Position numbers and translations under genes: made by a program. A model generated the notes under the pieces. The model was given only the letters and a program-made list of their open reading frames with translations. It searched no databases and was not told where the DNA came from. DNA of 64,000 nucleotides from Rugosimonospora sp. (GTDB lineage Bacteria > Actinomycetota > Actinomycetes > Mycobacteriales > Micromonosporaceae), in NCBI GenBank assembly GCA_035278125.1, contig DATEJJ010000852.1:757-64756 (forward strand). The letters are read 5' to 3'. Positions 174 through 37,494 of the stretch are shown piece after piece (position 1 is the stretch's first letter; every line of letters starts with the position of its first letter).

Positions 174-180
174 CCGAGTG

Positions 181-2373: not shown

Positions 2374-3440
2374 GCGCGATCCCCCTCCGCGTCCGGATGG
2401 CTCCCCGGTTGCTGCACGCCCGGCCGCCCCGCCGCGCGCTGGCTCAGCAGGATCCGGGTGCCGGCCGCCACCCCGTGCCGGGCCAGGGACCTGACGGGCA
2501 CAAGCCGGTCCAGCCGGGTACTGGTCAGGCACGCGTTCACCGGCCGGCAGGCGTACCTGGTCTGCTCCCGCCGGACCGGCGCGACCAGATCACGGGATCG
2601 CCCCAGCGCCTGCCCGATCGCCACCGCCCAGCCGTACCGCGAGATCCGGTCCGGACCGCCGAGGTGAAGCGGCCCCGACGGCGGCGCGGGCAGCAGCGCG
2701 GCGATGACCCGCACCACATCGTCCACGAGCAGCGGGGTGTTCCAGTGGTCGTACGGCGCGGCCACCGGCTGTCCGCGCTCCAGTTGCTGGACGCAGTGGG
2801 CGAAGAAGTTCAGCCACTGCCCCCCGCCCGGCTGCCACCCGTAGACCGCGCTGGCCCGAAGGACGGTGACGCGGGCGGACCGCTCCCGCAGGATCTGCTC
2901 GGCGCCCAGCTTCGCGCGCCCGTATGCGTTGGCCGGGTGCGGGATGGCGGACTCGTCGTAGGTGTCCGCGTCGCCACGGAAGACGTTGTCGGTGGACACG
3001 CCGATGAAGTGGGCGGCGGGCACCGCCGCGACGAGGTTGGCGGCGGCCCGGGTGTGCGCGGCGAGCGCCTCCGCCGGATGCGACTGGCACCAGGTCACGT
3101 CGGAAGGGCCGTGGACCAGCACGACGGCGTCCGGCTGCGCGAGATCGGCGGCGGCGCGGCAGGCGGCGGCATCGGTGACGTCCAGCGCGAGCCAGGCCGG
3201 CGGCAGATCGGCCGAATCCTCCACAGTGGACGATCCGGCACCGGCCGGCCGGGTAGTGACCGGCCCCGCACTGACCGGCGCCACGCCGGACGGTCCCACA
3301 CTGGCCGGCGCCACGGCGGCCGGGCCGGGTTGCGAAACCGGTGGCCGACGGGAGCACATGACGGCCGGAATTCCGGTACCGGCCAGGTGGTGGGCCAGTG
3401 CCCCACCGATCAGCCCACTACCCGCGATCATGACCCGCAT
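2361..3440 (-). CDS. NAD(P)-dependent RmlD-like sugar/cyclitol reductase-epimerase (extended SDR) with P/A/V/G-rich insertion
   Basis: Rossmann motif [20 protein letters not shown] (YxxxK), and RmlD substrate-binding-like C-terminal half. Residues ~31-81 are a low-complexity insert. TGATG junction with the ROK gene. Confidence 0.8.
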   Translation of the reverse strand: MRVMIAGSGLIGGALAHHLAGTGIPAVMCSRRPPVSQPGPAAVAPASVGPSGVAPVSAGPVTTRPAGAGSSTVEDSADLPPAWLALDVTDAAACRAAADLAQPDAVVLVHGPSDVTWCQSHPAEALAAHTRAAANLVAAVPAAHFIGVSTDNVFRGDADTYDESAIPHPANAYGRAKLGAEQILRERSARVTVLRASAVYGWQPGGGQWLNFFAHCVQQLERGQPVAAPYDHWNTPLLVDDVVRVIAALLPAPPSGPLHLGGPDRISRYGWAVAIGQALGRSRDLVAPVRREQTRYACRPVNACLTSTRLDRLVPVRSLARHGVAAGTRILLSQRAAGRPGVQQPGSHPDAEGDRACIS

Positions 3441-4489
3441 CAGCCCGTCCTCACCGTCGATCCGCCACCCGGGACCGTGGGTTCCGGCTGCGGTTCCGGG
3501 GCGGCGGTCGTGATCCGGCCGGCGCCGATCAGCGCGTGGTCGTCGTCCGGCTCACCCAACTGGGCCATCCGCCGGATGCGTTCCGGCGGCAGCCCGAAGC
3601 AGCCACGCGCGTCGAGCTGTTCGGCGAGCAGGTCCACATAGGACTGGCCGATCGCCTGAGCGAACCCGCCGACGATCACGTAGTGGCAGATTCCGGCCGC
3701 GGTGAACAGCGCGGTGACGGCGGACGCGAGGTGGGCCAGCCCGGTGCGCAGCACGTCCAGGGCGAAGGCGTCGCCGCCGGCCACTGCGCGGGCCAGGCCG
3801 ACCGCGTCGATCTCGGCCTGCCGAGCCAGGACCGAGCGGCGAAACGGCCCTGGGTCCCGGACCGCACGGCGTCGCGCAAGGGCCACCGCGCCCCGCCCCG
3901 AGGCAATGCCCCCCAGGTGTCCCCGCCCACCGCACTCGCACGGCAGCGCGTCCGGCCCGGTGTCGCAGGTCCAGTGGCCCAGCTCACCGCCGATCCCGTC
4001 CGGATCCACCATGACGCGGCCGGCGTGCACAACCTTGTTGCCGATCCCGGAGCTGACGGTGATCAGGCAGAAGGGCTCGGGAACCCGGCCGAGGTAGCGC
4101 CACGCGGCGGCGGTCAGATCGTTGACGACGACCACCGGGGCGTCGAGCCGGTCGCGCAGTTCCGCGGTCAGCGGCACCGGTTCGGCCGGGCCGCCCCAGA
4201 TGGTGGGGGCCGCCGTGACGACGCCGCCGTCGGTGACCGGACCGGCGAAGGCGACGACGATCTCGGCCGGATCACGCGGACCGGTCCGGATCCGCTCAAT
4301 CTCCCGGCCGATCTGGGCCACCACCCGCTCCTGCAGCACCGCTGCCGGGTCGTCCGGGTGGCGCGCCATGCCCTCAACGGGTACCCGGCGGACCTCCGAC
4401 AAGCGGCCCGTGTGCCTTTCGTAGCGCGCGGTGCGCAGCGTGGTTCCGCCGACGTCGAGCACGATGCGGTTGGCGGGAGAGGGCCTCAT
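3440..4489 (-). CDS. ROK-family kinase (AcbM/ValC-like C7-cyclitol kinase candidate)
   Basis: ORF 3440..4753(-). Start set at ATG 4489 ([19 protein letters not shown]), in an ATGA overlap with the upstream stop. Motifs: [27 protein letters not shown] (ROK Cys motif). Confidence 0.85.
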
Positions 4490-5589
4490 ACCGGCACCGC
4501 CGCTCCGGCGACCGGGGCCACCACACCGGCCTCGGTCACGATGGCGGACTCCACCACGGCACCGGGGCCGATCCGCGCACCGGGCAGCAGCACCGCGTCG
4601 CGGACGTGGGCGCCGGCGCCAATGCGTACCCCCGGAAAGGCCACGCTCGTCGCCAGTAGCCCGTCGTTGACCAGATCCGCCGGCACAATGCTGCGCTCCA
4701 CCCCGGGCGCCTTGCGCACGAAGCCCCGCGCCACCGCCGGAGCGACCAGGCACGGCATCTCGCCCAGAGTCATCGTCGGTGGGTCGGACACCAACGACAG
4801 GTGCGCCCGGTGGTACCGCTGCACCGTGCCGATGTCCGCCCAGTAGCCGCGTACCTCGTACCCCCGGATCAACTCGCCCCCGGCGAGCATGGCGGGAATC
4901 ACATCATGGCTGACGTCGTGCTGCCAGCCGGTACCGTCGAGCAGTTCCAGGTAGCGCCGCAGGATCGCGGCGTCGAATACGCAGAACGCCGCGAACACCA
5001 GGTCCGAGGTGACCGTCCGGGGCTTCTCCTCGAACCGGGTCAGCACGCCGTCCGGCCCGAACTCCACCATGCCGAACAGGTGGACGTACCGCCGCTCGAT
5101 GCGCTGGAAGGTGAGGGTGAGCGCGGCCCCGCTGTCCCGGTGGGTCCGGATCAGGTCGCGGTAGTCGAACGAGTAGACGTGGTCGGCGTGCAGCAGGAGC
5201 ACCTCCGTGACATCGGGCTGGAAGATGTACGCACCCTTGCGGATGAGCGCGTCAGCGGTACCGCGCTCGGGCGGGCCGGCGGGCGGGGCGGGCGCCGGTA
5301 CCGAGGCGTCCCGGGCCGCCCGGCGGTAGGCCGCGTCGTACGGTCCGAAGTGGACCCGGAAGCCGGGGCGCCACCACACCCGGAACAGGTCGTCCATGAG
5401 CTCGCGCTCCTCATGCTGCGAGAGCAGCAGTACCTCGCTGAAGCCTGAATTCCAGGCGTTGGCGATGCTGAAGTCGACGAGCCGGCAGGACCCCCCGAAA
5501 GGGATCAGCGGCTTGAGGCGCCCCGCGCCGAGTTGAGCCATGCGGGTACCCGCGCCCCCCGCCAGCAGTACCGCCCGCACGTCACCCAC
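4486..5589 (-). CDS. GlgC-like sugar/cyclitol-1-phosphate nucleotidyltransferase (AcbR/ValB-like)
   Basis: N-terminal [13 protein letters not shown]-transferase loop, GTADAL, and C-terminal left-handed beta-helix repeats ([26 protein letters not shown]). GTG start overlaps the GT2 stop by 8 nt. Confidence 0.85.
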
Positions 5590-7702
5590 GGGTCACCACA
5601 TCCCAGGCCACGCGCCCGCTGTCGAGGGTCAGCAGGAAGCACAGCGGCGACCCGTCCGGCGGATCCGGAAGGGTGGCGGTGAACGCGTCTCCATCGCGAC
5701 CCAGGGTCAGCACCTGAGCCCCGTCACCGATCCCCTGGAATACCAGCTCGACCCGCTGCGCGCTGGCCATGCGGTACCGCAGCCGGCGGGATGCTCCACT
5801 GTGGACGATCTCCAGCCGGTTCCGCACCGCGCTGAGCAACGGGAGCCGGGTTCCAACCGGTGCCTCCGACGCGATGGTCTCGCAGGCCGCGAAGTCGGCC
5901 CGCGCGTAGGCCGCGTCGAACAGCCGCCGCGCGGACTCCGGCGTCAGCGGCTGGCACCGGGTGAACGCCCGCACGTCGCCCCGGGCGAGCGCCCGCTCGG
6001 CGATGTCGGCGGCCCGGCTCCGCCAGCCGGCGGCGGAGACGCGGTCGAACCAACCGTTACGCAGTGCCGTGTCATCGCCGAGCACGGGGCGGCGCCCGTC
6101 GTGCACCTCCTGGAATGCGGCCAGGTGCTGCCGCGCGCAGCGTTCCCAGGTGAACTGCCGGGCGGTCCTGGCGGCGTTGCCGGACAGCCGGCGGTACTCG
6201 TCGGGCTGCTCGCGCCGCAGTCGCACCGCCGCGCGCATCGCCGCCGCCAGATCGTCGACGAGGATCGGGGCGTCCTCGGCAAAGGCGCGCGTGAGCGCGA
6301 ACCCGGTGGCCGAGTCCCGGTCCGGTCCGTGGTGCGGATCGGGGACGTGGCCGAAGTGAGCCATGCCCTCCTGGGCGGTGGCGATCGGCACCGCGCCGCA
6401 GGCCATTGCCTCCCCCTGTGCGATGAGGAACGTGTCCATCTCGTACTTGGACGGGAAAACGCAGTAGTCGGCGCTGGCCGCGTAGCCGAAGATGCGGTCC
6501 TCGGGAACCTGGTGCCATTCCAGATAGACCCGACCGGGGTACCGGCGGGCCACCTCGTGGAAGTAGGGGTCGTCGATGCCCGCCGGGGCCAGGCAACGGA
6601 TGATGAAGTTGGCCGCCAGGCCATCACCGAGCACCCGGTCAACCGCCCGCATCAACTCCCGCTGGCCCTTGTGCTCGACCGCGTAGCGGGCGTTGTGGAA
6701 GAACGTCACCCGGTCAGGCGCCAGCCCGAGCTCCGCGCGTACCGCCGCGCGGTCCACGGTGGACGGATCGGTGGACAGCCAGCGGTCGGACAGCGCGCAG
6801 CCGCCGACGAAGAACTTGTGTGCGTTGCGGGCCACCACGTCCGACACCGCGAGCCGGGTGAACAGCGCCTCGAACGGGGTATCGGCGAACGTCGAGTAGA
6901 AGTGCAGCTGGCCGGGCGACAGGAAGTCCACCAGGTCGGCGTGCTCGGCTACCAGGGCGAAGATGTTCACGTACTCCGGCGGGTACTCGTAGTGCAGGTG
7001 GGTGCGGCGCTGGTACCGGCTCATCGCGGCGTTCGCGGGGCCGTCCGGTACCGGGTCGGCGGCCGGCAGTTCGACCTTCACGTCGAGGGCGGCCAGCAGC
7101 GACTCGACCTCCCGGCGGTACACCATCTTGGTGATGGGCATGTTGCTCTGCACGGTGCTGGCGACAACCGTGTCGGGGTCGTCACGGAAGGCCGCCGGTA
7201 CCAGGTAATGGTAGAAGGGTTCGTGCGTGTGGATGACCGCGCGCTCGCCGCGGAACTGGTGCCGCATGAACCGCACACTGTCCACCTGGAACACCAGCGG
7301 CTTGAAGAACACCAGATCCCGGCCCTTGGTGTGGTACGGCGGGTAGAACGTGTCCGGCAGCCGGTCGAGCATGTCGTTGGACAGGAAGTACAGGTCCACC
7401 CCCTCGATCGTGACGCGGTGCGCCGTCGTCCGCAGCGGGATATCGACGGTCTCGGGGTAGTCCCGCCACACCCGCCGATCGAGTGGGATGGTCACCGTGT
7501 GTACGCCGTCGAACGGCACAGGCGTGACCGTGTGGTACCGGCGCAGATCCTCCAGCCGGCCGTGTGCCGGGGCGACAACGCTCACCCGGTGCCCTGCGGC
7601 GGCCATCGAACGGGAGAGATTCCACAGGTACACGGAGGTGCCCCCCTGAACCAGCCGGTGGTCGAACCCGCCGACGTCGAAGTAGTGCTCGATGATGTGC
7701 AT
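5582..7702 (-). CDS. Glycogen-synthase-like GT-B glycosyltransferase with C-terminal extension, paralog 2
   Basis: ORF 5582..7867(-). Start set at ATG 7702 ([17 protein letters not shown]). Motifs: [26 protein letters not shown]. The C-terminal [11 protein letters not shown]...[14 protein letters not shown] is conserved with paralogs 1 and 3. Confidence 0.85.
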
Positions 7703-7727
7703 CGATGTCCTCCACGCCCCATGCCTG

Positions 7728-9032
7728 TTAGCTGACTCCCGCCTCGCGGCCGGCCAGTCCGATCGCGCGATCCAGCCGGTCCAACCCCTCCTCCAGCACC
7801 TCCTCCGGCACGTTGAACGGTGGGGCCAGGCGGATGACGTTGCCGCCGAAGGCAACGCGGACGCCACCGTCGAGCGCGGCGCGGTACACCCGCCGGGCGA
7901 GATCCGGGGCCGGCGCGCGGGTACGCCGGTCAGTGACGAACTCCAGGCCGTACAGCAACCCCAGCCCGCGCACGTCGCCCAGCCCGGAATGCTTGTCCCG
8001 CAACGCGTGCAGCCGCTCGGCGAGCCGGCCGGCCAGGGCGTTCACCCGGTCGATCAGCCGGTCCCGCTCGACGACCCGCAGGGTGGCCTCGGCCACGGCG
8101 ATGCCCAGCGGGTTGCCGCCGTAGGTCGACGCGGTGGACCCGGCGACCGCCGCCGCCCCGGCCAGCGGTTCCGACCGGCCGGCGAGGACCGCGAAGGGGA
8201 AGCCGGAGCCGAGCCCCTTGGCCAGCGTCACCAGGTCGGGCTCGATGCCGAACCGCTCGCTGGCCAGGAACGTGCCGGTACGCCCGCCACCCGTGAGCAC
8301 CTCGTCGGCGATCAGCAGGACGCCGTTGGCGCGGCAGGCGTCCTGAATCAGTTCCCAGTAGCCCGGAGGCGGCACGATAACCCCGGCCGCGCCGAGTACC
8401 GGCTCGAAGAACAGCGCGCTGATGTTGGGTTTCTCCGCGATGTGCCGGCGGACCAGCTTCGCGCACCGCAGTTCGCACGAGGGGTACGTGAGGTCGAGTG
8501 GACAGCGGTAGCAGTACGGCGCATAGCCGAGCACGCTGTTGCCGGCGAGCGCCTGGTTGCCGATGTCCCAGTGCACCAGCATCCGGGCGCCCTGCGTTTT
8601 CCCGTGGAAGCCGTGGCGCAGCGCGCCGACCCGGTTGCGCCCGGGCGCCGCGCTCGCGAGTACCACGCGCAGCGCGGCCTCCACCACCTCGGCGCCGGTG
8701 CTGAAGAAGCTCAGCGTGTGCAGGTACGGCGGGAGCATCCGGGCCAGGGTGCGGCACAACTCGGCCCGGCCGGTGGTGGCGCTGTCATGGACATTCCACA
8801 GGCGCGCCGCTTGCCGGGTCAGGGCCTCGACGACCTCCGGATGGCAGTGCCCGACGGACTGGGTCAGGGTGCCCGCCGCGAGATCGATGTACTGGTTGCC
8901 ATCCAGGTCGGTCAGGATGGCACCCTGGCCCCGGTCGAACACCCGCTGCCCGGCGGTCGTCTCCTCGGAGGCGCCGGGCGCGAGATACGGTGCCTCGGCG
9001 CGCAGGGCGTCGCGCTGGCGTTCAGCCGTCAT
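7728..9032 (-). CDS. Class-III (GabT-like) PLP aminotransferase (AcbV/ValM-like)
   Basis: Motifs: DEVLTGGGRTG, TLAKGLGSG (Schiff-base Lys), STYGGNPLG. ATG 9032 preferred. A GTG at 9050 is the alternative start. Confidence 0.85.
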   Translation of the reverse strand: MTAERQRDALRAEAPYLAPGASEETTAGQRVFDRGQGAILTDLDGNQYIDLAAGTLTQSVGHCHPEVVEALTRQAARLWNVHDSATTGRAELCRTLARMLPPYLHTLSFFSTGAEVVEAALRVVLASAAPGRNRVGALRHGFHGKTQGARMLVHWDIGNQALAGNSVLGYAPYCYRCPLDLTYPSCELRCAKLVRRHIAEKPNISALFFEPVLGAAGVIVPPPGYWELIQDACRANGVLLIADEVLTGGGRTGTFLASERFGIEPDLVTLAKGLGSGFPFAVLAGRSEPLAGAAAVAGSTASTYGGNPLGIAVAEATLRVVERDRLIDRVNALAGRLAERLHALRDKHSGLGDVRGLGLLYGLEFVTDRRTRAPAPDLARRVYRAALDGGVRVAFGGNVIRLAPPFNVPEEVLEEGLDRLDRAIGLAGREAGVS

Positions 9033-10629
9033 GGGCCGCCCGGTCCTCACCGGCCGCCTCGAAGACCAGAAGCTCCAAGGGTACCGTCGAGTCGTTCCGC
9101 AGCCCGTGCTCGCCGAACGGCCCGTTGACGATCACGTCGCCGGCCCGTACCGGGAACTCCTCACCATCCACGCTCATCATCCCCTGGCCCCGCAGCACGA
9201 TGTACGTCTCCTGGTCGTCACCGTGCCGGTGCCGGCCGATGGAGCTGGCCGGCGGAATGGTCACCAGATCGATGAAGGCCACCGGCGCCAGACCGGCCAG
9301 CCGGTCGTACGCCCGGTGGACGCGGATCGGCCCGTCGCCACCGTGGTCGCCGTACACGGCCCGCATCAGATCGTCGTACACGTTGCCGCGCCGGGGTTCC
9401 GGCCGACCGGAGGACACGGCACCGGTCGCCGGCCCCGGGACGGATGGACTGACTCCCGGCGCCCCCGCCGCCCCCGATCGCCCGCGCAGCGCGGCCAACG
9501 CCTCCTCCAGCACCGGCAGCGGCAGGTCCTCCAACGATTCCACGAAGACGGTCTTGCCCAGCGCCGACGGCAGAACGAGGTTGAGCCGGCGACCGCGCCG
9601 CTCCCAGGCCGCCGTCAACGCCCGCCGCATGAACTCCGGCGTACAGGTCTGCGGGTCGAACACGGGCAGCCCGAGCCGGGCGATCAGGTCGACGATCCGC
9701 TCGCACTCCCCGGCCGGGCAGACACCGATCACCCGGGCGATGTGGCTGGAGATGGCCATGTCGATCGCGACCGACTCGCCGTGCGCGACCCGGTACCCGC
9801 TGGCGGTCTCGATGACGGGCCCGAAGGTGTGCCCGAAGTCCACGATCCGCGCGAGGTCCGTCTCGCACAGGTTGTCGCACAGTTCGTCGAGCATCAGCCG
9901 GATCGCGGTTCGGCTGACGCGGCGCCCGACCTCTCCCCCACGATCGCTCATCGGGTGCTGCAGCGCGTGGGCGTTCTCGTCGATGACGCGGAAGAGCTCC
10001 TCGTCGCGGATGACCGCCATCTTGACGATCTCCGCCAGCCCACACCGCGTCTCCCGGAGGGGCAGCGTGGCGAGGAAGGACATGTCGTTGAGTGACGCGT
10101 CGGGAGCGTGGTAGGCGCCGAGCATGTTCTTGGCCCCCACGCCGTTGACGCCGGTCTTCACGCCCACCCCGGCGTCCACCTGCGCGACCAGCGTCGTGTT
10201 GATTTTGACGTACGAAACGCCCCGCGCATAGATGGACGCGGCGAAACCCACCACGTCGCTGACCACACCGCCGCCGAACGCCATCATCACGCCGTGCCGG
10301 TCGAGGCCGAACCGCTTCGCGAACGCGCAGGTACGTTCGACATTGGCCAGCGTCTTGTTCGCCTCGCCGCTCGGTACCTCCGTCATGGTCCAGTCGCCCG
10401 GCTCCAGGTGCGCACCGAGATACTCGCGAAGCTGCCGGCCGTACAGCCGGTCGACCGTCGGGCTGACGAACGCGCACAACCGGCGGCCGCCAATGTAGTT
10501 GGCCAGCAGAGGGTTCTCCGGTGCGAGAATCCGTTCGCCCAGATCGACGCGGTACGAGATGCCTTCGGGCGAGCGGAGGGTGAACCATCCCTCTTCCTCG
10601 ACAACGGCGGACGTGATGCTTCGAGTCAT
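9022..10629 (-). CDS. Sedoheptulose-7-phosphate cyclase (2-epi-5-epi-valiolone synthase-like, DHQS superfamily) fused to a C-terminal metal-binding cupin
   Basis: ORF 9022..10701(-). Start set at ATG 10629 (MTRSITSAVV). DHQS-like motifs: GGGVVSDVVGFAASIY, DFGHTFGPVIE, HGESVAIDM. After an A/G/P/S linker come cupin motif 1 (GRHRHGDDQETYIVLRGQG) and motif 2 (GDVIVNGPFGEHGLRN). Confidence 0.85.
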   Translation of the reverse strand: MTRSITSAVVEEEGWFTLRSPEGISYRVDLGERILAPENPLLANYIGGRRLCAFVSPTVDRLYGRQLREYLGAHLEPGDWTMTEVPSGEANKTLANVERTCAFAKRFGLDRHGVMMAFGGGVVSDVVGFAASIYARGVSYVKINTTLVAQVDAGVGVKTGVNGVGAKNMLGAYHAPDASLNDMSFLATLPLRETRCGLAEIVKMAVIRDEELFRVIDENAHALQHPMSDRGGEVGRRVSRTAIRLMLDELCDNLCETDLARIVDFGHTFGPVIETASGYRVAHGESVAIDMAISSHIARVIGVCPAGECERIVDLIARLGLPVFDPQTCTPEFMRRALTAAWERRGRRLNLVLPSALGKTVFVESLEDLPLPVLEEALAALRGRSGAAGAPGVSPSVPGPATGAVSSGRPEPRRGNVYDDLMRAVYGDHGGDGPIRVHRAYDRLAGLAPVAFIDLVTIPPASSIGRHRHGDDQETYIVLRGQGMMSVDGEEFPVRAGDVIVNGPFGEHGLRNDSTVPLELLVFEAAGEDRAAHDG

Positions 10630-10744
10630 CGATAGCTTCCCCTGACAGCCCATTGAGTGGTGCGGTGGAGAACGCAGGCGAAACACCGCGCGCACAGGCA
10701 TCGCTGTATGCGCGTACCGTCATGGTGTATTCGCTGTTGCTCTG

Positions 10745-10855: not shown

Positions 10856-11890
10856 GTGGAGCGCGCGGTGGTCGTCGACAATCTGGTCAAGGAGTTCAAG
10901 GTCTATGAGCGGGGCTCGGGCCTGACCGGCAGCCTGCGCACTTTGCTGAGCCGCGACTACCGGCTGGTGCGCGCGGTTGACCATGTGTCCTTCGAGATCG
11001 AGGAGGGTGCGAAGGTCGCCTACATCGGCGCCAACGGCGCGGGTAAGTCAACGACCATCAAAATGCTGACCGGTGTGATGACCCCCACATCGGGCAGCTG
11101 CCTGGTGGGTGGCATCGAACCGTACCGGCAGCGGCGCCTCGCGGCGCGTCGCATGGGTGTCGTATTCGGCCAGCGTACCCAGCTCTGGTGGGACCTTTCC
11201 GTGCCCGACGCATTCCGCATTCTGCGGCGAGTCTACGAGATCCCCGATCCGGTGTACCACCGAAACATGGCGCTGTACCGGGAACTGCTGGACATCGATG
11301 CCCTCGGTACCGCGCCGGTGCGCACCCTCAGTCTCGGACAGCGCATGCGGGCCGAGGTGGCGGCGAGTCTGGTACACGATCCCGCCGTGCTCTTCCTGGA
11401 CGAGCCGACGATCGGCCTGGATCTGTTCCTCAAGGACGCCGTGCGGGAACTGATCAATCGGGTGAACCGGGACCTGGGCACCACCGTCGTGCTGACCAGT
11501 CATGACCTCAACGACATCGCCGCCATCTGCGACTGGGTTCTGGTCATCGACCGGGGGCGCGTCATCCACCAGGGCACGATCTCCGGGCTGCTGGCCACGG
11601 CCGACCAACGCTGCATTGTGGTCAACGCCAACGGCCGGCACCCGGCCGCCGAGATCGCCTCGGCGGTACACCGTCATCTGCCCGGTGTGCGGGCGCAGCC
11701 GACCGACGGCGGGCGCGTCGAGGTGTGCTACCCGCCCGATCGGGTCTCCTCCCGGGCCGTGCTGAGCTTCCTGCTGGACCGGTTCGATATCGGCGAGTGG
11801 TACGCCCCGGAGCCGGATCTGGCCGGCGTCATCCGCGCCATCTACGCCTCACCGGCCGTACCCGCCGGTCGGGACGGCACCGCGTGCTGA
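10856..11890 (+). CDS. ABC transporter ATP-binding protein (AcbW-like, ABC-2 exporter type)
   Basis: Walker A GANGAGKST, signature LSLGQRMR, Walker B VLFLDEPTIGLD, H-loop TSHD. GTG start. Confidence 0.9.
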   Translation: MERAVVVDNLVKEFKVYERGSGLTGSLRTLLSRDYRLVRAVDHVSFEIEEGAKVAYIGANGAGKSTTIKMLTGVMTPTSGSCLVGGIEPYRQRRLAARRMGVVFGQRTQLWWDLSVPDAFRILRRVYEIPDPVYHRNMALYRELLDIDALGTAPVRTLSLGQRMRAEVAASLVHDPAVLFLDEPTIGLDLFLKDAVRELINRVNRDLGTTVVLTSHDLNDIAAICDWVLVIDRGRVIHQGTISGLLATADQRCIVVNANGRHPAAEIASAVHRHLPGVRAQPTDGGRVEVCYPPDRVSSRAVLSFLLDRFDIGEWYAPEPDLAGVIRAIYASPAVPAGRDGTAC

Positions 11891-12687
11891 CCGCCCGGTA
11901 CACGGCATTCATGAGCGCGAAGACGCACACCTTCCTGCAGTACCGGGGGGCGCTGGCGATGACCGCGACGGGCGGTGTCATCAGCGTCGCGGTCCAGGTG
12001 TTCCTGTGGCGGGCCGTGGCGGCCAACGCGGCGGGTGGCCGGGTGGGCGGCTTTGACGGCCGGCAATTGACCACCTACATCCTCGTCGCGCAGCTGCTCG
12101 CCCTGGTCCACGCGAACCGGGTCGACGAGGAGATCGCGGAGGACATCTACACGGGATCCATCGTCGCGTCGGTCATCCGGCCGGTCAGCTATCCGCTGAT
12201 GCGCCTGGCGGTGGCGATTCCGGTGGTCACGCTCAACGCCGTATTCGTGGCGGGCCCGGTGCTCGTACCGTTCCTACTGCTGGTTCCGCTGTCGGTACCC
12301 ACACCGGCCCGAGCGGTCATGTTCGTGGCCAGCGTGCTGCTATCGGTCGTCATCGCGTTCCTGGTCAACCTGCTCGTCGGATATGCCGGCCTGCTGACCA
12401 CCAACAACTGGGGACTGCGCAACGTGAAGGATGGTGTCGTTTCGTTCCTGGCCGGCCGGCTGATGCCGATCTCGGTCATGCCCGGCGCGCTCGCCACGGT
12501 CTGCGCCGCGCTGCCGTTCCAGGGCATGGTCTACGCACCGACCCGGCTCCTGCTGGGCGGCTACCACGGAACCGGCGAGGCGGTCGGCATCCTCGGTCAG
12601 CAGGCCGCCTGGGTGCTGGTCCTGTCGCTGCTTTCCGGGTTGGTGTGGCGGCGGGTGCGCCGCCGGCTGGAGGTGTTCGGCGGATGA
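11884..12687 (+). CDS. ABC-2 type exporter permease (AcbX/Y-like)
   Basis: ORF 11725..12687. Start at GTG 11884 (GTGCTGA overlap with the ATPase stop) or ATG 11911. Multiple hydrophobic helices. Confidence 0.75.
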   Translation: MLTARYTAFMSAKTHTFLQYRGALAMTATGGVISVAVQVFLWRAVAANAAGGRVGGFDGRQLTTYILVAQLLALVHANRVDEEIAEDIYTGSIVASVIRPVSYPLMRLAVAIPVVTLNAVFVAGPVLVPFLLLVPLSVPTPARAVMFVASVLLSVVIAFLVNLLVGYAGLLTTNNWGLRNVKDGVVSFLAGRLMPISVMPGALATVCAALPFQGMVYAPTRLLLGGYHGTGEAVGILGQQAAWVLVLSLLSGLVWRRVRRRLEVFGG

Positions 12688-13505
12688 AGGGCAGCCCACC
12701 GACCGCCATCGCCAGTCTCACGCGGTACCTGAAGCTGACCATCTTCTTCGGCGGCGTGGGCCTGCACCGGCTCACCGCGTACCGGTTGGACTTCATGCTC
12801 GGCGCGGGCAGCTTCTTCGTCCGGGTCGGCACGCAGGCGGCGGTGCTCATGTTCATTTTCCGCCAGGTACCGGTCATCGAGGGCTGGGGGTACCGCCAGA
12901 CGCTGTTCCTGTTCGGCTTTTCGCTGATACCACGCGGACTGGACCACCTGTTCACCGACCAGCTGTGGGAGGTCGGGCGCAAGCTGGTGCTCACCGGTGA
13001 CTTCCACCGGTACCTGATCCGGCCCCTCGGTCCGCTGTTCGGTGTGTTGTCGGAGCGCTTTCTCTACCCGGACGGGTTCGGTGAGTTGCTCGTCGGCGTG
13101 GCCATCACCGGGTACGCCGGGCACCGGCTCGGCCTGCACCTGTCGCCGGGACAGCTGCTGCTGCTCCCGCTGCTGATCCTGTCCGGCGCGCTCATCTACG
13201 CCGGTATCAAGCTCCTGCTGGCCTCCGCCGCGTTCTGGACGACCACCAGCATGCCGGCCATGGCCGCCACCTACCAGGCATCGGATTTCGCGGCCTATCC
13301 GCTGGAGATCTACGGGACGGCCGTGCGCCGCCTGCTGACCTGGGTACTGCCGTTCGCGTTCACCTCGTACGCACCCGTGTCGTATCTGCTCTACGGGCGT
13401 ACCCACTTGTTGGTCTGGACGCCCCTCGTGGTCGTGGTGGTCCTGTTGCTGGCCGCTGCGGCGTGGTCCCGGGGCGTCCGGCGGTACGAGATGAGCGGCA
13501 CCTGA
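12684..13505 (+). CDS. ABC-2 type exporter permease (AcbX/Y-like), second subunit
   Basis: ORF 12645..13505. Start at ATG 12684 (MKGSPPTAIA), in an ATGA overlap with the previous stop. Polytopic hydrophobic profile. Confidence 0.8.
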   Translation: MKGSPPTAIASLTRYLKLTIFFGGVGLHRLTAYRLDFMLGAGSFFVRVGTQAAVLMFIFRQVPVIEGWGYRQTLFLFGFSLIPRGLDHLFTDQLWEVGRKLVLTGDFHRYLIRPLGPLFGVLSERFLYPDGFGELLVGVAITGYAGHRLGLHLSPGQLLLLPLLILSGALIYAGIKLLLASAAFWTTTSMPAMAATYQASDFAAYPLEIYGTAVRRLLTWVLPFAFTSYAPVSYLLYGRTHLLVWTPLVVVVVLLLAAAAWSRGVRRYEMSGT

Positions 13506-13532: not shown

Positions 13533-15347
13533 ATGACGATTCACCACGACGGCTCCGCGCGCTACGTGCCCAACCAGAGCCCGCGGATCGGCGATGTCGT
13601 CGACGTCTACGCCCGCGCCTCCGGGACGGCCGGCGTCGGGGAAGTCTGGCTGCGCGCGACCCAGGACGGCGGGGTCCGCTTCCTACCGGCGACCGTCGAG
13701 CCGGTACCCGGTGCGGAGCCGGGCGTCGTATGGTTCCGGGCCCCGCTGCCGGTACACAACCGCGTCACCCGGTACCGGTTCCTGCTCGCCGGAGCGGGCG
13801 GTTACCGGTGGCTGACCGCGGCCGGCATCCGCGCCGGGCACATACCCGATGACACCGACTTCCGGTTGGTGTGCGGAGACGGGCCACCGGCCTGGTCCGC
13901 CGACGCCATCGGGTATCTCATCTTCCCCGACCGGTTCGCCCGCTCGGCCGGCGCCGACCGCCGGCCGGTGCCGGACTGGGCCCTCGTCCGCCGCTGGGAC
14001 GCGCCGGTCAACGGCGCGGCGCCCGACTGCGAGCGCGAGTTCTTCGGCGGCGATCTGGACGGCATCCGCGAGCACCTGGATCATGTGGCCGCGTTGAGCG
14101 CCGACACCATCTGCCTGACCCCGTTCTTCGCGTCGCCGACAAACCACCGCTACCGCGCCAGTTCGTTCGAGCGCGTCGACCCGGCGCTCGGCGGGGAGGA
14201 GGCATTCACCCGGCTGGCGGGCGCGCTGCACGGCCGGGGGTGGCGCCTGATCGGCGACCTGACCACCAACCACACCGGCGCCGAGCATGAGTGGTTCCAG
14301 CGGGCGCGTGCCGGAGCGCACCGCGACCTGTACTACTTCGATGATCGCGTGGAGCACGGCTACGAAACCTGGGCGAACGTCGAGCACCTGCCGAAGTTGA
14401 ACTGGGGCAGCCGCGAACTGCGCCGGAGGTTCTTCGACGGGCCCGACTCGGTGGCCCGGCGCTGGCTGGCGGCGGGGCTGGACGGCTGGCGGGTCGACGT
14501 GGGGCACCGTACCGGCCGGCGGGGCGCGGACGACGACAACCATGAGGTGGCCGCCGCGATGCTCGCCGCCGTGCGGGCATCCCGGCCGGACGCGCTGCTC
14601 ATCGCGGAGCACATGCACGACGCCAGCGGCGACATCGACATCGGCGGCTGGCACGGCGTGTTGAACTACGCGGGCTTCAGCCGTCCCGTGTGGAGCTGGC
14701 TGGGCGCCGAGCCGTTGTCCTGTCTCGGCCTGCCGGTCGGCGTGCCCCGGCTGTCCGCGGCGAGCATGGTGAAGTCCATGCGGGCCTTTGCCGCCCGGAT
14801 GTCCTGGCGCACCCTGACCACGTCGTGGTCGCTGCTCGACTCGCACGACACACCACGCATCCGGACGGTGGTCGGCGACGACGCGGCCCTCGTCGAAGTC
14901 GCCGCCGGCCTGATGGCCACCCTGCCCGGCACGCCGATGGTCTACGCGGGCAGCGAAATCGGCCTGCGGGGACGGTGGGCCGAGGACGGGCGGCGGCCGA
15001 TTCCGTGGCAGGACAGGGAATCGTGGGACCGGGTGACCCTGACCCGGTACCGGTCGCTGCTGGGGTTGCGCCGCGAAAACGCCGCCCTGCGGCGGGGCGG
15101 GCTGCGCTTCCTGCACGCGGGTGAGCACGAACTGGTGTACCTGCGCGAGACGGCCGACGAGCGCCTGCTCGTGTACGCCGCGCGCCAGCGACCGGCGCAC
15201 CCTGTCGGGCTGACCGAACCGGCGGACGGCGAGAACATCTACGGCGGCGCCCCCGACCTCCGCTCCGGTCGGCCACTGCCGGCCGACGGGCCGACCTTCC
15301 AGGTGTGGCGGCTGCGGGAGGGGGGCGGGCGCGGCCGTGGGCACTGA
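13533..15347 (+). CDS. GH13 alpha-amylase-family hydrolase/transferase (neopullulanase/cyclomaltodextrinase-like), no signal peptide
   Basis: GH13 regions I-IV: DLTTNHTG, GWRVDVGH, IAEHMHD, LLDSHDTPR. N-terminal beta-sandwich domain. RBS-like GGGAAGG upstream. Confidence 0.9.
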   Translation: MTIHHDGSARYVPNQSPRIGDVVDVYARASGTAGVGEVWLRATQDGGVRFLPATVEPVPGAEPGVVWFRAPLPVHNRVTRYRFLLAGAGGYRWLTAAGIRAGHIPDDTDFRLVCGDGPPAWSADAIGYLIFPDRFARSAGADRRPVPDWALVRRWDAPVNGAAPDCEREFFGGDLDGIREHLDHVAALSADTICLTPFFASPTNHRYRASSFERVDPALGGEEAFTRLAGALHGRGWRLIGDLTTNHTGAEHEWFQRARAGAHRDLYYFDDRVEHGYETWANVEHLPKLNWGSRELRRRFFDGPDSVARRWLAAGLDGWRVDVGHRTGRRGADDDNHEVAAAMLAAVRASRPDALLIAEHMHDASGDIDIGGWHGVLNYAGFSRPVWSWLGAEPLSCLGLPVGVPRLSAASMVKSMRAFAARMSWRTLTTSWSLLDSHDTPRIRTVVGDDAALVEVAAGLMATLPGTPMVYAGSEIGLRGRWAEDGRRPIPWQDRESWDRVTLTRYRSLLGLRRENAALRRGGLRFLHAGEHELVYLRETADERLLVYAARQRPAHPVGLTEPADGENIYGGAPDLRSGRPLPADGPTFQVWRLREGGGRGRGH

Positions 15348-16974
15348 GCACCGGGGTACGCCCGGAGCCGGCGAGCCGGCACCGGACCGCATCGCCGATA
15401 CGACGCTGCTGCCACCGGCCGGACGCGGGTACCACCCGTCACCCGAGGACTGGCGGGACGAGGTGATGTACTCCATCCTCATCGACCGGTTCCAGGCCGG
15501 CCCGGGGCGGGTCATCGAGGGTGACCCCGCGGATGGCGGCAGCCGGCATGGCGGGAACCTCCGCGGTATCACCGGCCGCCTGAACTACCTGAGCGACCTG
15601 GGCGTCACCGCGATCCAACTCTCGCCCGTCACGTGGACCGCGCCCGGCACCTACCACGGGTACGCCCCGGTGCACCTGATGTCGGTGGACCCGCGCCTGG
15701 GCCGGATGGCCGATCTCGTCGAGCTGATCGACCGGGCCCACCGTCGGGGCATCCGGGTCCTGCTCGACCTCGTCGTCAACCACACCGGCCCGGTGTTCCA
15801 GTACGCGGACGGGCACAACCGCTGGAAGGATGCGCCGGCCCCGGTGGCCGGCGGGGTCGTACACATCCGTCCCCGGGAACTGGCCGACCCGGCGCACTTC
15901 TCCCGGCGGGGCATCATCGCGGACTGGAAGGATCCGGAACAGGCGGCGTTCGGGGACTTCCCACCGAGCCACCGGCACCTCGCCACGGACAACCCGGCGA
16001 CGGCCCGCCTGCTGGAGCATGTGGCCTGCTGGTGGCTGCGGGAAACCGACGCCGACGGCCTGCGGCTGGACGCGATCCGCCACCTGTATCCGCCCTTCCT
16101 CACCGCCCTGTGCGCGACCGTCCGGCAGTACGCGGCGCGTCTCGGCAAACACAACCTGCTCATCGTCGGGGAGTATTCGAGTACCACCGACGCACCCATC
16201 GCGGAGAGCCTGCGCCTGGGAGTGGACACCGGATACAACTATCCCGAGTACCGGCGCCAGAGCTGGGCGCTGCACGGGCAGGCGCCCACGCGCGACCTGG
16301 AGACCAGCTCCGGAACGGCGGTGGCGGCGTTCGGTCCGGCGCACGGGCGGCTCATCAGGTTCGTCGACAACCACGACGTGTTCCGCTTCCTGCGCTACGG
16401 CGAGCCGGCCAGCCGGTTGCGCCCGGCCCTGGCCTTCCTGCTGTTCTCACCCGGCATCCCGATGCTGTACTACGGCACCGAGCAGGGGATGCGCCAGCCC
16501 TCCCAACGGCTGGACCGGGAGTGCTCGGCCGACCGGGCGGCGCCCCGCAACCGGGAGGACATGTTCGCCGAAGGCCAGTTCACCTCGGCCAGTTCGGCCG
16601 GCGACAAGTTCGACCCGTCGTCGGAGATGTTCCGGTGGACCCAGCGGCTCATCCAGATCCGGCAACGCTTCCCGGCACTGCGCCACGGCCGGCAGATCGT
16701 GCGCTGGTCGGACCCTCGGGGCCCGGGCCTGTACGCGCTGAGCCGGATCGATGAGGGGCAGGAGGTACTCGTCGTGCTGAACACGGCGGCCGAGGAGCGG
16801 CGCGAGTTCATCCCGGTCGGACCGGTGCTGGGCGGTCGCCCACTCGTCGACGCACTGGGCGGCGGTCCCCCGATACCGGCGACCACACCAGCGGGCGACC
16901 CGGGGGAGGTGCCCGTCACCGTTCCGGCGCACGGGGTCCGGGTTCTGGTCCCGGCGGCGGGGGCGGACCGGTGA
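15337..16974 (+). CDS. GH13 alpha-amylase-family enzyme, no signal peptide
   Basis: GH13 regions: DLVVNHTG, GLRLDAIRHL, IVGEYS, FVDNHDVFR. GTG start overlaps the upstream stop by 11 nt. Confidence 0.85.
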   Translation: MGTEHRGTPGAGEPAPDRIADTTLLPPAGRGYHPSPEDWRDEVMYSILIDRFQAGPGRVIEGDPADGGSRHGGNLRGITGRLNYLSDLGVTAIQLSPVTWTAPGTYHGYAPVHLMSVDPRLGRMADLVELIDRAHRRGIRVLLDLVVNHTGPVFQYADGHNRWKDAPAPVAGGVVHIRPRELADPAHFSRRGIIADWKDPEQAAFGDFPPSHRHLATDNPATARLLEHVACWWLRETDADGLRLDAIRHLYPPFLTALCATVRQYAARLGKHNLLIVGEYSSTTDAPIAESLRLGVDTGYNYPEYRRQSWALHGQAPTRDLETSSGTAVAAFGPAHGRLIRFVDNHDVFRFLRYGEPASRLRPALAFLLFSPGIPMLYYGTEQGMRQPSQRLDRECSADRAAPRNREDMFAEGQFTSASSAGDKFDPSSEMFRWTQRLIQIRQRFPALRHGRQIVRWSDPRGPGLYALSRIDEGQEVLVVLNTAAEERREFIPVGPVLGGRPLVDALGGGPPIPATTPAGDPGEVPVTVPAHGVRVLVPAAGADR

Positions 16975-18728
16975 CCGGGCGAGTGATCATCGAGGCGGTC
17001 ACGCCGGCCGTCGACGGCGGGCGGTACCCGGCCAAGGCCGTCGTCGACGAACGCATACACGTCGAGGCGACCGTGTGGCGTGAGGGGGACTGGCCGTTGT
17101 CGGTCTGCGTCAGGTGGCACGGGCCGGCGGACGACGGCTCGGGCGAACTGGTACCGATGGCGCAGACCGGCAAGGGTACCGACCGCTGGTACGCGGAACT
17201 GGTACCGCACCGGGTCGGCCGCTGGCGCTTCCAGGTGGTGGCCTGGACCGACCGGCGGGACGGCGGAGGCATACCGCGCCGCACCTTCGTCACCACCGGC
17301 CCCTGGTACGACGTGTGCGTCGACCCCGTACTGGCGCGGTTCAGCTCCTGGTACCAGTGCTTCCCGCGCTCGACCGGCGGTTGGGACGCGGACGGCCGGC
17401 CGATCCACGGGACCCTGCGCACGGCAGCCGCCGACCTGCCGCGCATCGCTGCCATGGGCTTCGATGTCGTATACCTGGCCCCGTTCCACCCCATCGGAGT
17501 CACCGGCCGGAAGGGGCGCAACGGCGCGCCGACGGCCGGGCCGGACGACCCGGGGTGCCCGTGGGCGGTCGGCTCGGCGGACGGCGGGCACGACGCGGTC
17601 GATCCGCGGCTGGGTACGGTCGACGACCTCGTCGCCTACGTGTCCGCCGCGCGGTCGATCGGAGTGGCGGTGGCCATGGACCTCGCCCTCCAGTGCTCAC
17701 CGGACCACCCGTGGGTCTCCGAGCACCCCGAGTGGTTCCGCGACGGTGGCACCGCCCAGAGCGGCGGGCACGGCCCCTGGACCGACGTGTACCCGCTGGA
17801 CTTCGACGCCGACCCGCGCGAGCTGTACAGCGAACTGCTGCGGGTCGTGCTGTTCTGGGTCGACCGGGGGATCCGGGTCTTCCGCGTGGACAACCCACAC
17901 ACCAAACCCATGGACTTCTGGGTATGGCTGATCCGCACCGTCAAGCAGCGCCATCCGGATGTCACCTTCCTGGCCGAGGCGTTCACCCGCTCGGCAGTTC
18001 AGCGGGGCCTGTCCAAACTGGGGTTCAGCCAGAGCCTCACATACTTCATCTGGCGCACCACCAAGGCGGAGCTGACCAGGTTCGGCGAGGAGCTGGTGGA
18101 CACCGCCTGGTACCTGCGACCCAACCTGTTCCCCAGTACCCACGATGTACTGCACGAGATTCTCCAGTCCGGTGAGCCGGCCGTGTTCGCGATCCGCGCG
18201 GCGCTGGCGGCCACGCTGTCGCCGAGTTGGGGCGTCTACTCCGGGTACGAACTCTTCGAACACGAGGCTCTCCAGGCGGGCAGCCGCGAGTACCGGGATT
18301 CGGAGAAGTTCGAGCTGCGACCGCGGGACTTCTCGGCCGCCCGGTCCGCCGGGTGCGACCTGGCGGCCTGGCTCACCACCCTCAACGCGATCCGCCGGGC
18401 GCACCCCGCGCTCCAGCAGTTGCGGACGCTGCGCTTCCACGCGGTGGACAACGACGAGCTGCTCGCGTACTCCAAGACCGACCCGGTCACCGGCGACGCG
18501 GTGCTGTGCGTGGTCAACCTGAATCCGCGCACCGTGCAACGCGGAACCGTACGGCTGGCCGGCATTCCCGGCCTGTCCGACGCCCCGTGCCGCACCGTGG
18601 TCGACGAGCTCAGCGGCGCCCAGCGGCCGTGGGCCAACGACCAGGAGGTCACCCTCGATCCGGCCCACGCGGTCGCCCTCATCGTGTCCACGCGGATCGC
18701 GGTTCCCGAGGACGCGCTGCCGCACTGA
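16971..18728 (+). CDS. GlgE-like (GH13_3) alpha-1,4-glucan:maltose-1-phosphate maltosyltransferase homolog, shortened (585 aa)
   Basis: GlgE-type motifs: WYQCFPRS, GFDVVYLAPFHPIG, GRKGRNG, LQCSPDHPWV, FRVDNPHTKP (nucleophile Asp), FLAEAFT (acid/base Glu), FIWRTTK. GTGA overlap with the upstream stop. Confidence 0.85.
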   Translation: MTGRVIIEAVTPAVDGGRYPAKAVVDERIHVEATVWREGDWPLSVCVRWHGPADDGSGELVPMAQTGKGTDRWYAELVPHRVGRWRFQVVAWTDRRDGGGIPRRTFVTTGPWYDVCVDPVLARFSSWYQCFPRSTGGWDADGRPIHGTLRTAAADLPRIAAMGFDVVYLAPFHPIGVTGRKGRNGAPTAGPDDPGCPWAVGSADGGHDAVDPRLGTVDDLVAYVSAARSIGVAVAMDLALQCSPDHPWVSEHPEWFRDGGTAQSGGHGPWTDVYPLDFDADPRELYSELLRVVLFWVDRGIRVFRVDNPHTKPMDFWVWLIRTVKQRHPDVTFLAEAFTRSAVQRGLSKLGFSQSLTYFIWRTTKAELTRFGEELVDTAWYLRPNLFPSTHDVLHEILQSGEPAVFAIRAALAATLSPSWGVYSGYELFEHEALQAGSREYRDSEKFELRPRDFSAARSAGCDLAAWLTTLNAIRRAHPALQQLRTLRFHAVDNDELLAYSKTDPVTGDAVLCVVNLNPRTVQRGTVRLAGIPGLSDAPCRTVVDELSGAQRPWANDQEVTLDPAHAVALIVSTRIAVPEDALPH

Positions 18729-18768: not shown

Positions 18769-18862
18769 AGCATTCCCGCCCGCTTGGGGTGCACCGGCCG
18801 ATCGCCGGATGACAGACTGTCCACCGGCGGACGAGCGCCTCGCGAAGAGGGTGGGCCTAGCG

Positions 18863-19819
18863 ATGACGTCGCACACCGACATGCGCCGGCACCGGCTGCT
18901 GTACGGCTGCATGGGGCTCGGTGGCGACTGGGACACCCGCCCGTACGGTGCCCGGGACATCGGGACAGCCGAGGCCGCGATCACCGCCGCCCTGGACATC
19001 GGCATCACCGCCTTCGACCACGCGGACATCTACCGGTGCGGCAAGGCGGAGGCGGTCTTCGGGGAGGTCCTCGCCCGCGCGCCGGAGTTGCGCCCACGCA
19101 TCGTGCTGCAGACCAAGTGCGGGATACGGCCGGCCGACGACGCCGGGCCGGACCGGTACGATCTGCGCGGGTCGCACATCCGGCGCTGCGTCGAGGAGAG
19201 CCTCACCCGGCTGCGTACCGACGTCATCGACGTCCTGCTGTTGCACCGGCCGGATCCGCTGGCCGATCCCGAGGACACCGCCGAGGCCCTGACCTCGCTG
19301 CGGCGTCAGGGTCTGGTGCGCGACGTCGGCGTCTCGAACATGGCCGCCCCGCAGATCGCCTACCTGCGGGCGCACCTGGACTTCCCGCTGGTCGCCAACC
19401 AGCTCGAAATGAGCCTGGCCCGGCGGGACTGGCTGGAAGGCGGAGTTCTGGTCAACACGCCCCAGTCCGCGGCGACCGGCTTTCCGCTCGGTACCGTTGA
19501 ATACTGCCGGACGAACCGGATCGGCATCCAGGCGTGGGGACCGCTCGCGCGCGGGCGTTTCACCGGAGCCGCGCAGTCACCGGCGGACCAGGCCGTCGCC
19601 GGGCGCCTCGCTGACCTGGCCCGGCAGAAGGACACCACCCCCGAGACCGTCCTGCTGTGGTGGATACAACGGCATCCGGCGGGCATCGCGCCGGTGATCG
19701 GCACCGCGCGCCCCGAACGCATCCGCGCCTGCGCGGGCGCGGCGCGGCGGGAGCCTGAGCTGTCCCGCGAGGAATGGTACGAGCTGTGGGTCACTGCCCG
19801 GGGCGGCCGGCTGCCGTAG
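18863..19819 (+). CDS. Aldo/keto reductase (YdhF-like)
   Basis: ORF 18809..19819. Motifs: GITAFDHADIY, LLHRPD, GVSN, and a C-terminal AKR fold. ATG 18863 has GAGGGTGGG upstream. ATG 18809 and 18881 are alternative starts. Confidence 0.8.
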   Translation: MTSHTDMRRHRLLYGCMGLGGDWDTRPYGARDIGTAEAAITAALDIGITAFDHADIYRCGKAEAVFGEVLARAPELRPRIVLQTKCGIRPADDAGPDRYDLRGSHIRRCVEESLTRLRTDVIDVLLLHRPDPLADPEDTAEALTSLRRQGLVRDVGVSNMAAPQIAYLRAHLDFPLVANQLEMSLARRDWLEGGVLVNTPQSAATGFPLGTVEYCRTNRIGIQAWGPLARGRFTGAAQSPADQAVAGRLADLARQKDTTPETVLLWWIQRHPAGIAPVIGTARPERIRACAGAARREPELSREEWYELWVTARGGRLP

Positions 19820-19844
19820 GCCGGCTGCCCCGCGGTACCCGTTC

Positions 19845-37371: not shown

Positions 37372-37394
37372 GCCGGCAGCGTTGCGCCAACCGG

Positions 37395-37412
37395 TCGAGC
37401 CTCGTTCGAGGC
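37395..37412 (+). promoter_or_regulatory. SARP-box candidate: TCGAGCC-N4-TCGAGGC upstream of GT-A
   Basis: Two heptamers at exact 11-bp phasing, read directly from the sequence. They lie 83 nt upstream of ATG 37495. TAGGCA and TAGCGT -10-like hexamers follow. Confidence 0.5.
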
Positions 37413-37494
37413 GACCATAGGCATAGCGTGCGGCTCCAGGCATCCGCGAGCGGCCGATGCGACGATTCCCGTCCGAACCCGGAGGAGCATCGGC

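Follow-up and report, generated by a model that had tools for sequence, protein, structure and literature searches.

This study concerns a single gene on a 64,000-nucleotide stretch of DNA from Rugosimonospora sp. (contig DATEJJ010000852.1; the whole 64-kb stretch is referred to below as the window). The gene encodes a GlgE-like protein of glycoside hydrolase family 13 (GH13), here called the query, which an earlier reading of the same DNA (the original prediction) had taken for a shortened GlgE-like maltosyltransferase with an altered donor site. The features that bear on its function are the following, with the equivalent residues of Streptomyces coelicolor GlgEI in brackets.

16971-18728, forward strand: GlgE-like GH13 gene, GTG start, 585 residues, belonging to a clade linked to biosynthetic gene clusters
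17253-17273, forward strand: residues 95-101 (RRDGGGI), junction in place of the four-helix domain S of ~79 residues
17739-17795, forward strand: residues 257-275, RDGGTAQSGGHGPWTDVYP, rewritten domain-B loop replacing the canonical RPDGTIAxAENPPKKYQDIYP
17880-17909, forward strand: FRVDNPHTKP, residues 304-313, with R305 (R392), the nucleophile D307 (D394), N308 (N395) and H310 (H397) all kept
17967-17987, forward strand: FLAEAFT, residues 333-339, with the acid/base E336 (E423) kept
18135-18152, forward strand: STHDVL, residues 389-394, with D392 (D480) kept and H391 in place of the canonical Pro479

Fold, active site and loss of domain S

The third-position GC content of the open reading frame (ORF) is 0.91, as for real genes in this 70% GC sequence, and no signal peptide was found in the protein. 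An identical protein from a Rugosimonospora sp. metagenome-assembled genome is annotated in the database as a 'maltotransferase domain-containing protein'. Pfam profiles GlgE_dom_N_S (E 1.9e-26, matched only over profile positions 1-90 of 179) and GLGE_C (E 1.9e-18) were both detected, and the top match in the PDB was Mycobacterium thermoresistibile GlgE (5cgm, E 3.1e-195), followed by M. tuberculosis GlgE (4u33, 1.4e-189) and S. coelicolor GlgEI (5vsj, 5.9e-155). An AlphaFold2 model, with a mean predicted local distance difference test (pLDDT) of 88.3 and a predicted template modelling (TM) score of 0.89, superimposed on GlgE structures with TM scores of 0.92-0.93 and an identity of 42-49% over the structural alignment (Foldseek). 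By fold and by descent the query is a GlgE homologue.

GlgE has been validated as a drug target in tuberculosis, and its donor pocket is viewed as invariant. The phosphate of a donor analogue (a phosphonate) is bound in S. coelicolor GlgEI by N352, K355, Y357 and N395 (PMC4526890), and the first three of these are invariant in the 151 canonical GlgE sequences compared. Three of the four ligands are gone from the query, in which the loop is shortened with no equivalent of N352 or K355, Y357 has become W270, and N308 (N395) is the one retained. The alteration of the donor-phosphate segment noticed in the original prediction is thus borne out by alignment. The part of the loop from residue 264 to 275 reads SGGHGPWTDVYP.

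The catalytic apparatus is retained, with the GH13 triad (D307, E336 and D392) accompanied by R305 and H310, and the nucleophile and acid/base motifs FRVDNPHTKP and FLAEAFT are as intact as had been claimed. The third motif put forward as a GH13_3 signature, STHDVL, is not one. Canonical GlgE reads NTPD at this place, with Pro479 in 148/151 sequences, and the query reads S-T-H-D. A His-Asp pair in region IV is usual in most other GH13 enzymes, including members that cleave O-glycosides, and P479H would restore the region IV His-Asp of the family. Elsewhere in the site Q324, K264, A282, D359 and K534 of the -1/-2 subsites are kept, and the -2 subsite carries the changes N268G, S279C, Y535F and V277P. 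The acceptor subsites for alpha-1,4 chains are conserved (T426, R427, Y445, W448 and R449), the sole difference being P428S. At the secondary alpha-glucan site on domain C, Y646 is replaced by Glu in the query; this position is Tyr or Phe in 123 of the 151 canonical sequences. Y646 aids polymer extension by S. coelicolor GlgE and is dispensable for short acceptors (PMC5076824).

Alignment to S. coelicolor GlgEI places query residues 2-94 on 18-109 and 102-570 on 189-657, the 79 residues 110-188 being represented by seven. A helical insert is therefore missing, as the original prediction held, with a net loss of ~72 residues and not the ~90 it gave. The missing block corresponds to ~126-204 in M. 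thermoresistibile numbering, where the four-helix bundle of domain S occupies 123-204 (PMC4663749), and because the limits of the gap approximate to those of the domain the deletion is a clean excision of domain S. Before residue 132 the model contains beta strands only and no helix, and a short hairpin closes the N-domain sandwich. The query does not have the five-domain architecture of GlgE in which domain S is inserted in domain N. The notion that this shortening implies a new donor was rejected, since GlgE homologues of other lineages that are without domain S (P0222, P0231, P0254 and P0279; ~590-650 residues, each a single continuous match, 35-47% identical to the query) keep ENPPKKY or ENPPKRY together with NTPD. 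As these homologues retain the canonical site, shortening by itself says little about the donor, and loss of domain S alone is neither diagnostic nor, strictly, a departure from what defines GlgE.

A rare clade with a relaxed donor site

The query is one of a clade defined by monophyly with the His479 members, together with W357, C279, P277, loss of Y646 and linkage to a partner GH13 gene. It carries the corresponding hallmarks H391, W270, C196 and P194, and its gene overlaps that of its partner by 4 nt. Ten of the best 120 database matches shared Trp357 and His479; P0121 and P0124 came from a search with a profile built on those ten, and P0164 and P0167 from an exhaustive search of representatives, giving 14 members. 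Trees were simple neighbour-joining trees with 200 bootstraps, and residue scoring of most sites covers 12 of the 14. The clade separated from canonical actinobacterial GlgE in 200/200 replicates (10 against 37 sequences), and in 178/200 when all 14 members, further canonical sequences and distant homologues were included. It has few carriers: when 185,579 species genomes were scanned for the Trp-variant motif there were seven matches, of which those in Hamadaea tsunoensis and Polymorphospora sp. 2-325 are real and the other five are without GlgE similarity, and a metagenome scan gave one match.

P479H is found in 14/14 members and Y357W in 12/14; other changes found clade-wide are V277P, S279C, Y349C, A435S and V476P. 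None of the 12 members scored has an aromatic residue at the position of Y646. Position 355, Lys in 151/151 canonical sequences, has become Arg in nine members and Ser in two, and three have no residue there. D394, E423, D480, R392, Q324, H397, K264, D359 and K534 are conserved in the query and across the clade, as are T426, R427, Y445, W448 and R449. The original prediction missed this conserved clade, with its P479H and its loss of Y646, as well as the recurrent loss of domain S described below.

The loop is also rewritten, independently of the query, in P0164 (DGRLQSVDQPGGGWSDV) and in P0167, and for this reason the idea that the query is a unique aberrant gene was rejected. P0167 also has H397Q. 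P0164 and P0167 group together (200/200) as sister to the RVW subclade (195/200), and the query (P0001) pairs with P0003 (152-197/200). Since the two pairs are placed apart, the phosphate loop was dismantled at least twice independently. Domain S is absent from six of the 14 members (the query, P0002, P0029, P0124, P0164 and P0167), and as these have differing junctions and do not form a common group, it was lost at least four times within the clade. The query has 18 lineage-specific changes at universally conserved sites, 10 in the loop and eight outside it. The eight lie within the range of 0-11 seen in its relatives, which argues that the protein has probably been remodelled locally and is not decaying.

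Outside the clade, the distant GlgE-family proteins P0214, P0247, P0280 and P0312 have either lost the nucleophile motif (VRASSADQKP or FFSKSTHHKP) or read NTPQ for NTPD. These may be pseudo-enzymes, or enzymes of other specificities, in non-actinobacterial lineages.

The cyclitol cluster and related loci

The genes around the query in the window are as follows.

3-191, reverse strand: PfkB (AcbK-like) kinase, N-terminal 60-63 residues, cut by the window start
181-2532, reverse strand: AcbS/AcbI-like GT5, copy 1
2361-3440, reverse strand: RmlD-like NAD-dependent reductase/epimerase
3440-4753, reverse strand: ROK-family kinase (AcbM-like), true start probably downstream of 4753
4486-5589, reverse strand: GlgC-like (AcbR-type) nucleotidyltransferase
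5582-7867, reverse strand: AcbS/AcbI-like GT5 (pseudo)glycosyltransferase, copy 2
7728-9050, reverse strand: class III aminotransferase, 68-70% identical to those of related clusters
9022-10701, reverse strand: 2-epi-5-epi-valiolone-synthase-like cyclase fused to a cupin domain, best structural relative ValA (4p53, E 7e-71)
10856-13505, forward strand: ATP-binding cassette (ABC) exporter, an ATPase and two ABC2_membrane_6 permeases, upstream of three GH13 genes
13533-15347, forward strand: MalZ-like GH13, 604 residues, best PDB matches maltodextrin glucosidase and the 'acarbose hydrolase' Apg
15337-16974, forward strand: partner GH13, alpha-amylase-like, 545 residues, no signal peptide, regions I-IV intact
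18809-19819, forward strand: aldo-keto reductase, 60% identical to that of the Hamadaea cluster
19845-21365, reverse strand: GMC oxidoreductase, also in Hamadaea L001, L016 and L017
21378-23519, reverse strand: AcbS/AcbI-like GT5, copy 3
23657-24811, reverse strand: helix-turn-helix regulator, probable edge of the cyclitol cluster

This set matches that of the acarbose-type pseudo-oligosaccharide pathway (PMC9200736). The locus is an acarbose-like C7-cyclitol cluster rather than one for alpha-glucan, and the setting had been recognised correctly from the outset. As the PfkB gene runs off the start of the window, the cluster continues beyond it. The stop of the partner GH13 gene overlaps the start of the GlgE-like gene by 4 nt (GTGA), and the partner gene in turn overlaps the MalZ-like gene by 11 nt. 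Of the translational coupling put forward in the original prediction, the overlaps among the three GH13 genes are borne out; the exporter, however, ends 27 nt before the MalZ-like gene.

None of treS, pep2 and glgB was found in the window or in the flanks of nine related loci, and the window contains no canonical glgE. A search with a canonical GlgE from Micromonospora sp. SCSIO 07396 (P0101) returned no protein from Hamadaea, Polymorphospora or Rugosimonospora. Its next best match was 73% identical and its matches were mostly from Pseudonocardiaceae, with no close Micromonospora relatives; either P0101 was acquired horizontally, or the GlgE typical of Micromonosporaceae is of another lineage.

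Clusters with the cyclase, aminotransferase, GT5, nucleotidyltransferase and exporter genes are also found in Hamadaea tsunoensis, Nonomuraea sp. NPDC050153 and two metagenome contigs, and where enough flank is visible the members of the clade sit in valiolone-synthase/AcbS-like pseudo-oligosaccharide clusters. An orthologue of the partner GH13 is linked to each member of the clade. A tblastn comparison found it in 7/7 related loci (57-65% identity), usually immediately upstream with a 4-nt overlap, and in several loci the order is GH13, GlgE-like gene and PfkB (AcbK-like) gene. The gene call for P0167 is 870 residues long and consists of the C-terminal part of the partner GH13 fused in frame to a GlgE-like protein without domain S. 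It was seen in two sequencing runs (L017 2073-4685 and L018 326-2938), followed by PfkB, GMC and GH4 genes, and could be natural or an artefact of assembly or of an indel. No GH77 gene was found in these clusters. The related clusters also contain genes for an APH-like kinase and a HAD phosphatase, neither of which was found inside the window. The APH-like proteins (461-487 residues) have weak Pfam matches, one of them to Mak_N_cap (E 0.008), and no PDB match; an identity as maltokinase (Pep2) was rejected on matches this weak, an AcbU-like one was preferred, and the proteins were given no weight as evidence.

Some further features of these loci stand apart from the question of the GlgE-like gene. 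The cupin domain occupies residues 479-546 of the cyclase ORF, and in Hamadaea, Nonomuraea and one metagenome locus it is a separate gene of 109-132 residues right after the cyclase. The GMC oxidoreductase is kept either with an aldo-keto reductase (window 18809-21365; Hamadaea L001 12645-15031) or with a GH4 enzyme (L016 11590-16210; L017 5620-8474), and no RmlA/RmlB-type dTDP-glucose genes were found in the cluster, a combination that may point to formation of the amino sugar through a keto-sugar, unlike in the acarbose pathway. In the metagenome locus of P0002 a 726-residue radical SAM protein (L003 5996-8176) lies between the partner GH13 and the MalZ-like GH13, with a 2OG-Fe(II) oxygenase nearby, and no cyclase is visible in the 22 kb of L003; the P0002 gene may serve a different pathway. 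Beyond the cyclitol cluster a Mutator-family transposase fragment (25265-26065, reverse strand) is followed by a second, unrelated biosynthetic cluster at ~31000-64000 of the window. This contains a type II polyketide synthase ketosynthase alpha/beta pair (47995-50537), a SARP regulator (34107-34961), EryCIII-like glycosyltransferases (37120-38688, 38970-41045 and 42293-43495, two of which have long N-terminal extensions as ORFs), a P450, O-methyltransferases, an ABM monooxygenase and a PEP-utilising enzyme (58184-60604).

Function and comparison with known systems

Several features that define GlgE are not found in the query (domain S, Pro479, Y646, the complete phosphate tetrad and the pathway setting), and it should therefore not be annotated as an alpha-1,4-glucan:maltose-1-phosphate maltosyltransferase. 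As to the donor type, the acceptor and the physiological role, we infer a cytoplasmic, phosphate-independent alpha-1,4 maltosyl transferase or disproportionating enzyme that would act on oligosaccharide or pseudo-oligosaccharide chains and be functionally like AcbQ, a reading that is favoured tentatively and falls a little short of an even call. The query would be dedicated to a C7N-aminocyclitol pseudo-oligosaccharide pathway. It keeps the retaining double-displacement machinery, the larger part of the -1/-2 'maltosyl' subsites and the acceptor platform at +3/+4, and has given up the traits of a maltose-1-phosphate-driven polymerase, namely the pocket for phosphate, domain S and the secondary site on domain C that guides the polymer.

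GlgE works by double displacement through a maltosyl-enzyme intermediate. In the query a covalent maltosyl-type (disaccharide-unit) intermediate would be formed from an oligosaccharide donor and not from maltose-1-phosphate, and the disaccharide would then go either to water or to the 4-OH of a short acceptor. GlgE disproportionates maltooligosaccharides without maltose-1-phosphate (PMC11046441), and this minor activity would have become the main one. With the partner and MalZ-like GH13 enzymes, the query would adjust the length of the glucose tail on the pseudo-oligosaccharide, or extend it, or else provide a maltose or maltooligosaccharide acceptor, before export. Its part would be comparable to that played in Actinoplanes by the GH77 enzyme AcbQ, which elongates acarbose and acarbose-7-phosphate intracellularly (PMC10146171).

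Several caveats must be applied to this proposal. The rewritten loop at residues 263-268 is the sole internal segment modelled with a pLDDT below 50, so its geometry is not fixed by the model. The four changes in the -2 subsite mean that the unit transferred may not be plain maltosyl. Arg at 355 or 356 is present in ten of the 12 scored members, N352 in 11 and N395 in most; the ancestral function of the clade could involve an anionic leaving group, in which case the query would be an outlier whose function has changed or been lost. The activity of the clade members is in any case a predicted one. In the window, moreover, the GlgE-like gene does not adjoin the PfkB gene, and the analogy to AcbQ rests partly on a gene order, acbQ before or next to acbK, that we take to be that of the acarbose cluster. 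The different donor suggested in the original prediction fits the relaxation of the phosphate site across the clade, with its replacement or loss of the otherwise universal Lys355 and two rewritings of the loop; the pseudo-oligosaccharyl donor offered there finds nothing that points to it specifically.

A more far-reaching version, which seems unlikely, is that the clade represents a new GH13_3-derived activity that uses a non-phosphate donor and transfers a disaccharide unit other than plain maltose, possibly as a heteromer with its co-translated GH13 partner, to which it is joined in frame in P0167. Such a unit could be an acarviosyl-like pseudo-disaccharide or an amino- or keto-modified maltosyl group. 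If this were so, a new activity of GH13_3 descent would set the repeat or tail architecture of a family of pseudo-oligosaccharide glycosidase inhibitors.

It is likewise unlikely that the query is still a sugar-1-phosphate-dependent transferase. Such an enzyme would account for the retention of N395 and of the whole -1 subsite, for the Arg and N352 kept by most members of the clade and perhaps for the APH/maltokinase-like kinases of related clusters, one with its weak Mak_N_cap match, and the changes V277P, S279C, N268G and Y535F could suit a non-glucose unit. However, the loop is without a cationic residue or Asn in the query, P0164, P0167 and P0124, so that, if orthologous clusters share one function, those residues are not needed, and the kinases are more simply explained as AcbU-type cyclitol 1-kinases (PMC9200736), with none found inside the window.

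The query could also be a catalytically dead or decaying remnant, or could serve the adjacent GH13 as a carbohydrate-binding partner with no catalysis of its own, which we consider improbable. In favour, no other member scores lower on the profile of the clade (1015 bits, a value that two canonical GlgEs exceed), 18 conserved sites carry lineage-specific changes, the loop at the entrance to the active site is modelled with low confidence, and GlgE-family lineages without a nucleophile do exist. Against this, the frame of 585 codons is intact with typical third-position GC and a coupled start, the triad and subsites are all kept, and 10 of the 18 changes fall in one loop with the rest within the range of the clade.

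Quite improbable, too, is a maltose-releasing exo-hydrolase that feeds maltose from internal alpha-glucan to an AcbI-type glycosyltransferase. AcbI requires maltose (PMC9200736), GlgE slowly hydrolyses its substrates (PMC4663749, PMC5076824), and the putatively restored His-Asp motif resembles that of hydrolytic GH13 members; the retained +3/+4 platform (W448, Y445 and R449) argues instead for continued binding of a chain at the acceptor subsites, and hydrolysis and transfer are not separable by sequence alone. The weakest explanation, and a most improbable one, is a self-resistance paralogue, that is, an inhibitor-insensitive GlgE copy that sustains alpha-glucan synthesis while a valienamine-type compound blocks the housekeeping enzyme: S. 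coelicolor GlgEI is reported to be bound by valienamine glucosides and amylostatin-like compounds (PMC8238978, PMC9501709), and acarbose clusters are annotated with the acarbose-resistant alpha-amylases AcbE and AcbZ (PMC7682106), but a replacement should retain the maltose-1-phosphate pocket, Y646 and domain S, all of which are lost or relaxed, and no glgB, treS or pep2 lies nearby.

The clade is of interest in two respects. By keeping the core while dismantling the phosphate pocket, the polymer site and domain S, the clade shows which parts are needed for polymerase function and provides a set of 'natural mutants'. It also marks acarbose-like clusters (in Hamadaea, Polymorphospora, Nonomuraea, Rugosimonospora and several metagenome contigs) in which the sugar tail would be tailored by GH13_3 chemistry instead of by the GH77 AcbQ. 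Literature searches found no paper tying GlgE or maltosyltransferase to valiolone, acarbose, pseudo-oligosaccharide or aminocyclitol clusters or to Hamadaea. One carrier of a clade member, Hamadaea tsunoensis DSM 44101 (orthologue at ~130-132 kb of AUAX01000004), is a culture-collection strain, and the hypothesis should therefore be directly testable.

Among known systems the closest is GlgE itself (GH13_3, EC 2.4.99.16; S. coelicolor GlgEI, M. tuberculosis Rv1327c and the M. thermoresistibile enzyme), with which the query shares the fold, domains N, A, B and C with their inserts, the triad, most of the -1/-2 residues and the acceptor residues at +3/+4. It differs in being without domain S, three of the four phosphate ligands, Pro479 and Y646, in its altered -2 subsite (N268G, S279C and Y535F), and in lying in a biosynthetic gene cluster with no treS, pep2 or glgB nearby. 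The domain-S-less homologues of other lineages (P0222, P0231, P0254 and P0279), unlike the query, keep the canonical donor site. AcbD, AcbE and AcbZ are secreted GH13 enzymes of the cyclodextrin glucanotransferase or amylase type. These, the acarviosyltransferase AcbD and the amylases AcbE and AcbZ, also belong to acarbose clusters and act on alpha-1,4 chains or acarviosyl units, whereas the query has no signal peptide and is of GlgE lineage. AcbQ, the acarbose 4-alpha-glucanotransferase (GH77 amylomaltase) of Actinoplanes sp. SE50/110, is encoded in an acarbose-type cluster and works inside the cell as an alpha-1,4 transglycosylase, as is proposed for the query, and a further likeness is that the GlgE-like gene stands directly before the PfkB (AcbK-like) gene in several related loci. 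The fold families of the two are unrelated (GH77 and GH13_3) and the Pfam and PDB matches of the query are to GH13/GlgE only, so that the likeness would be functional at most.

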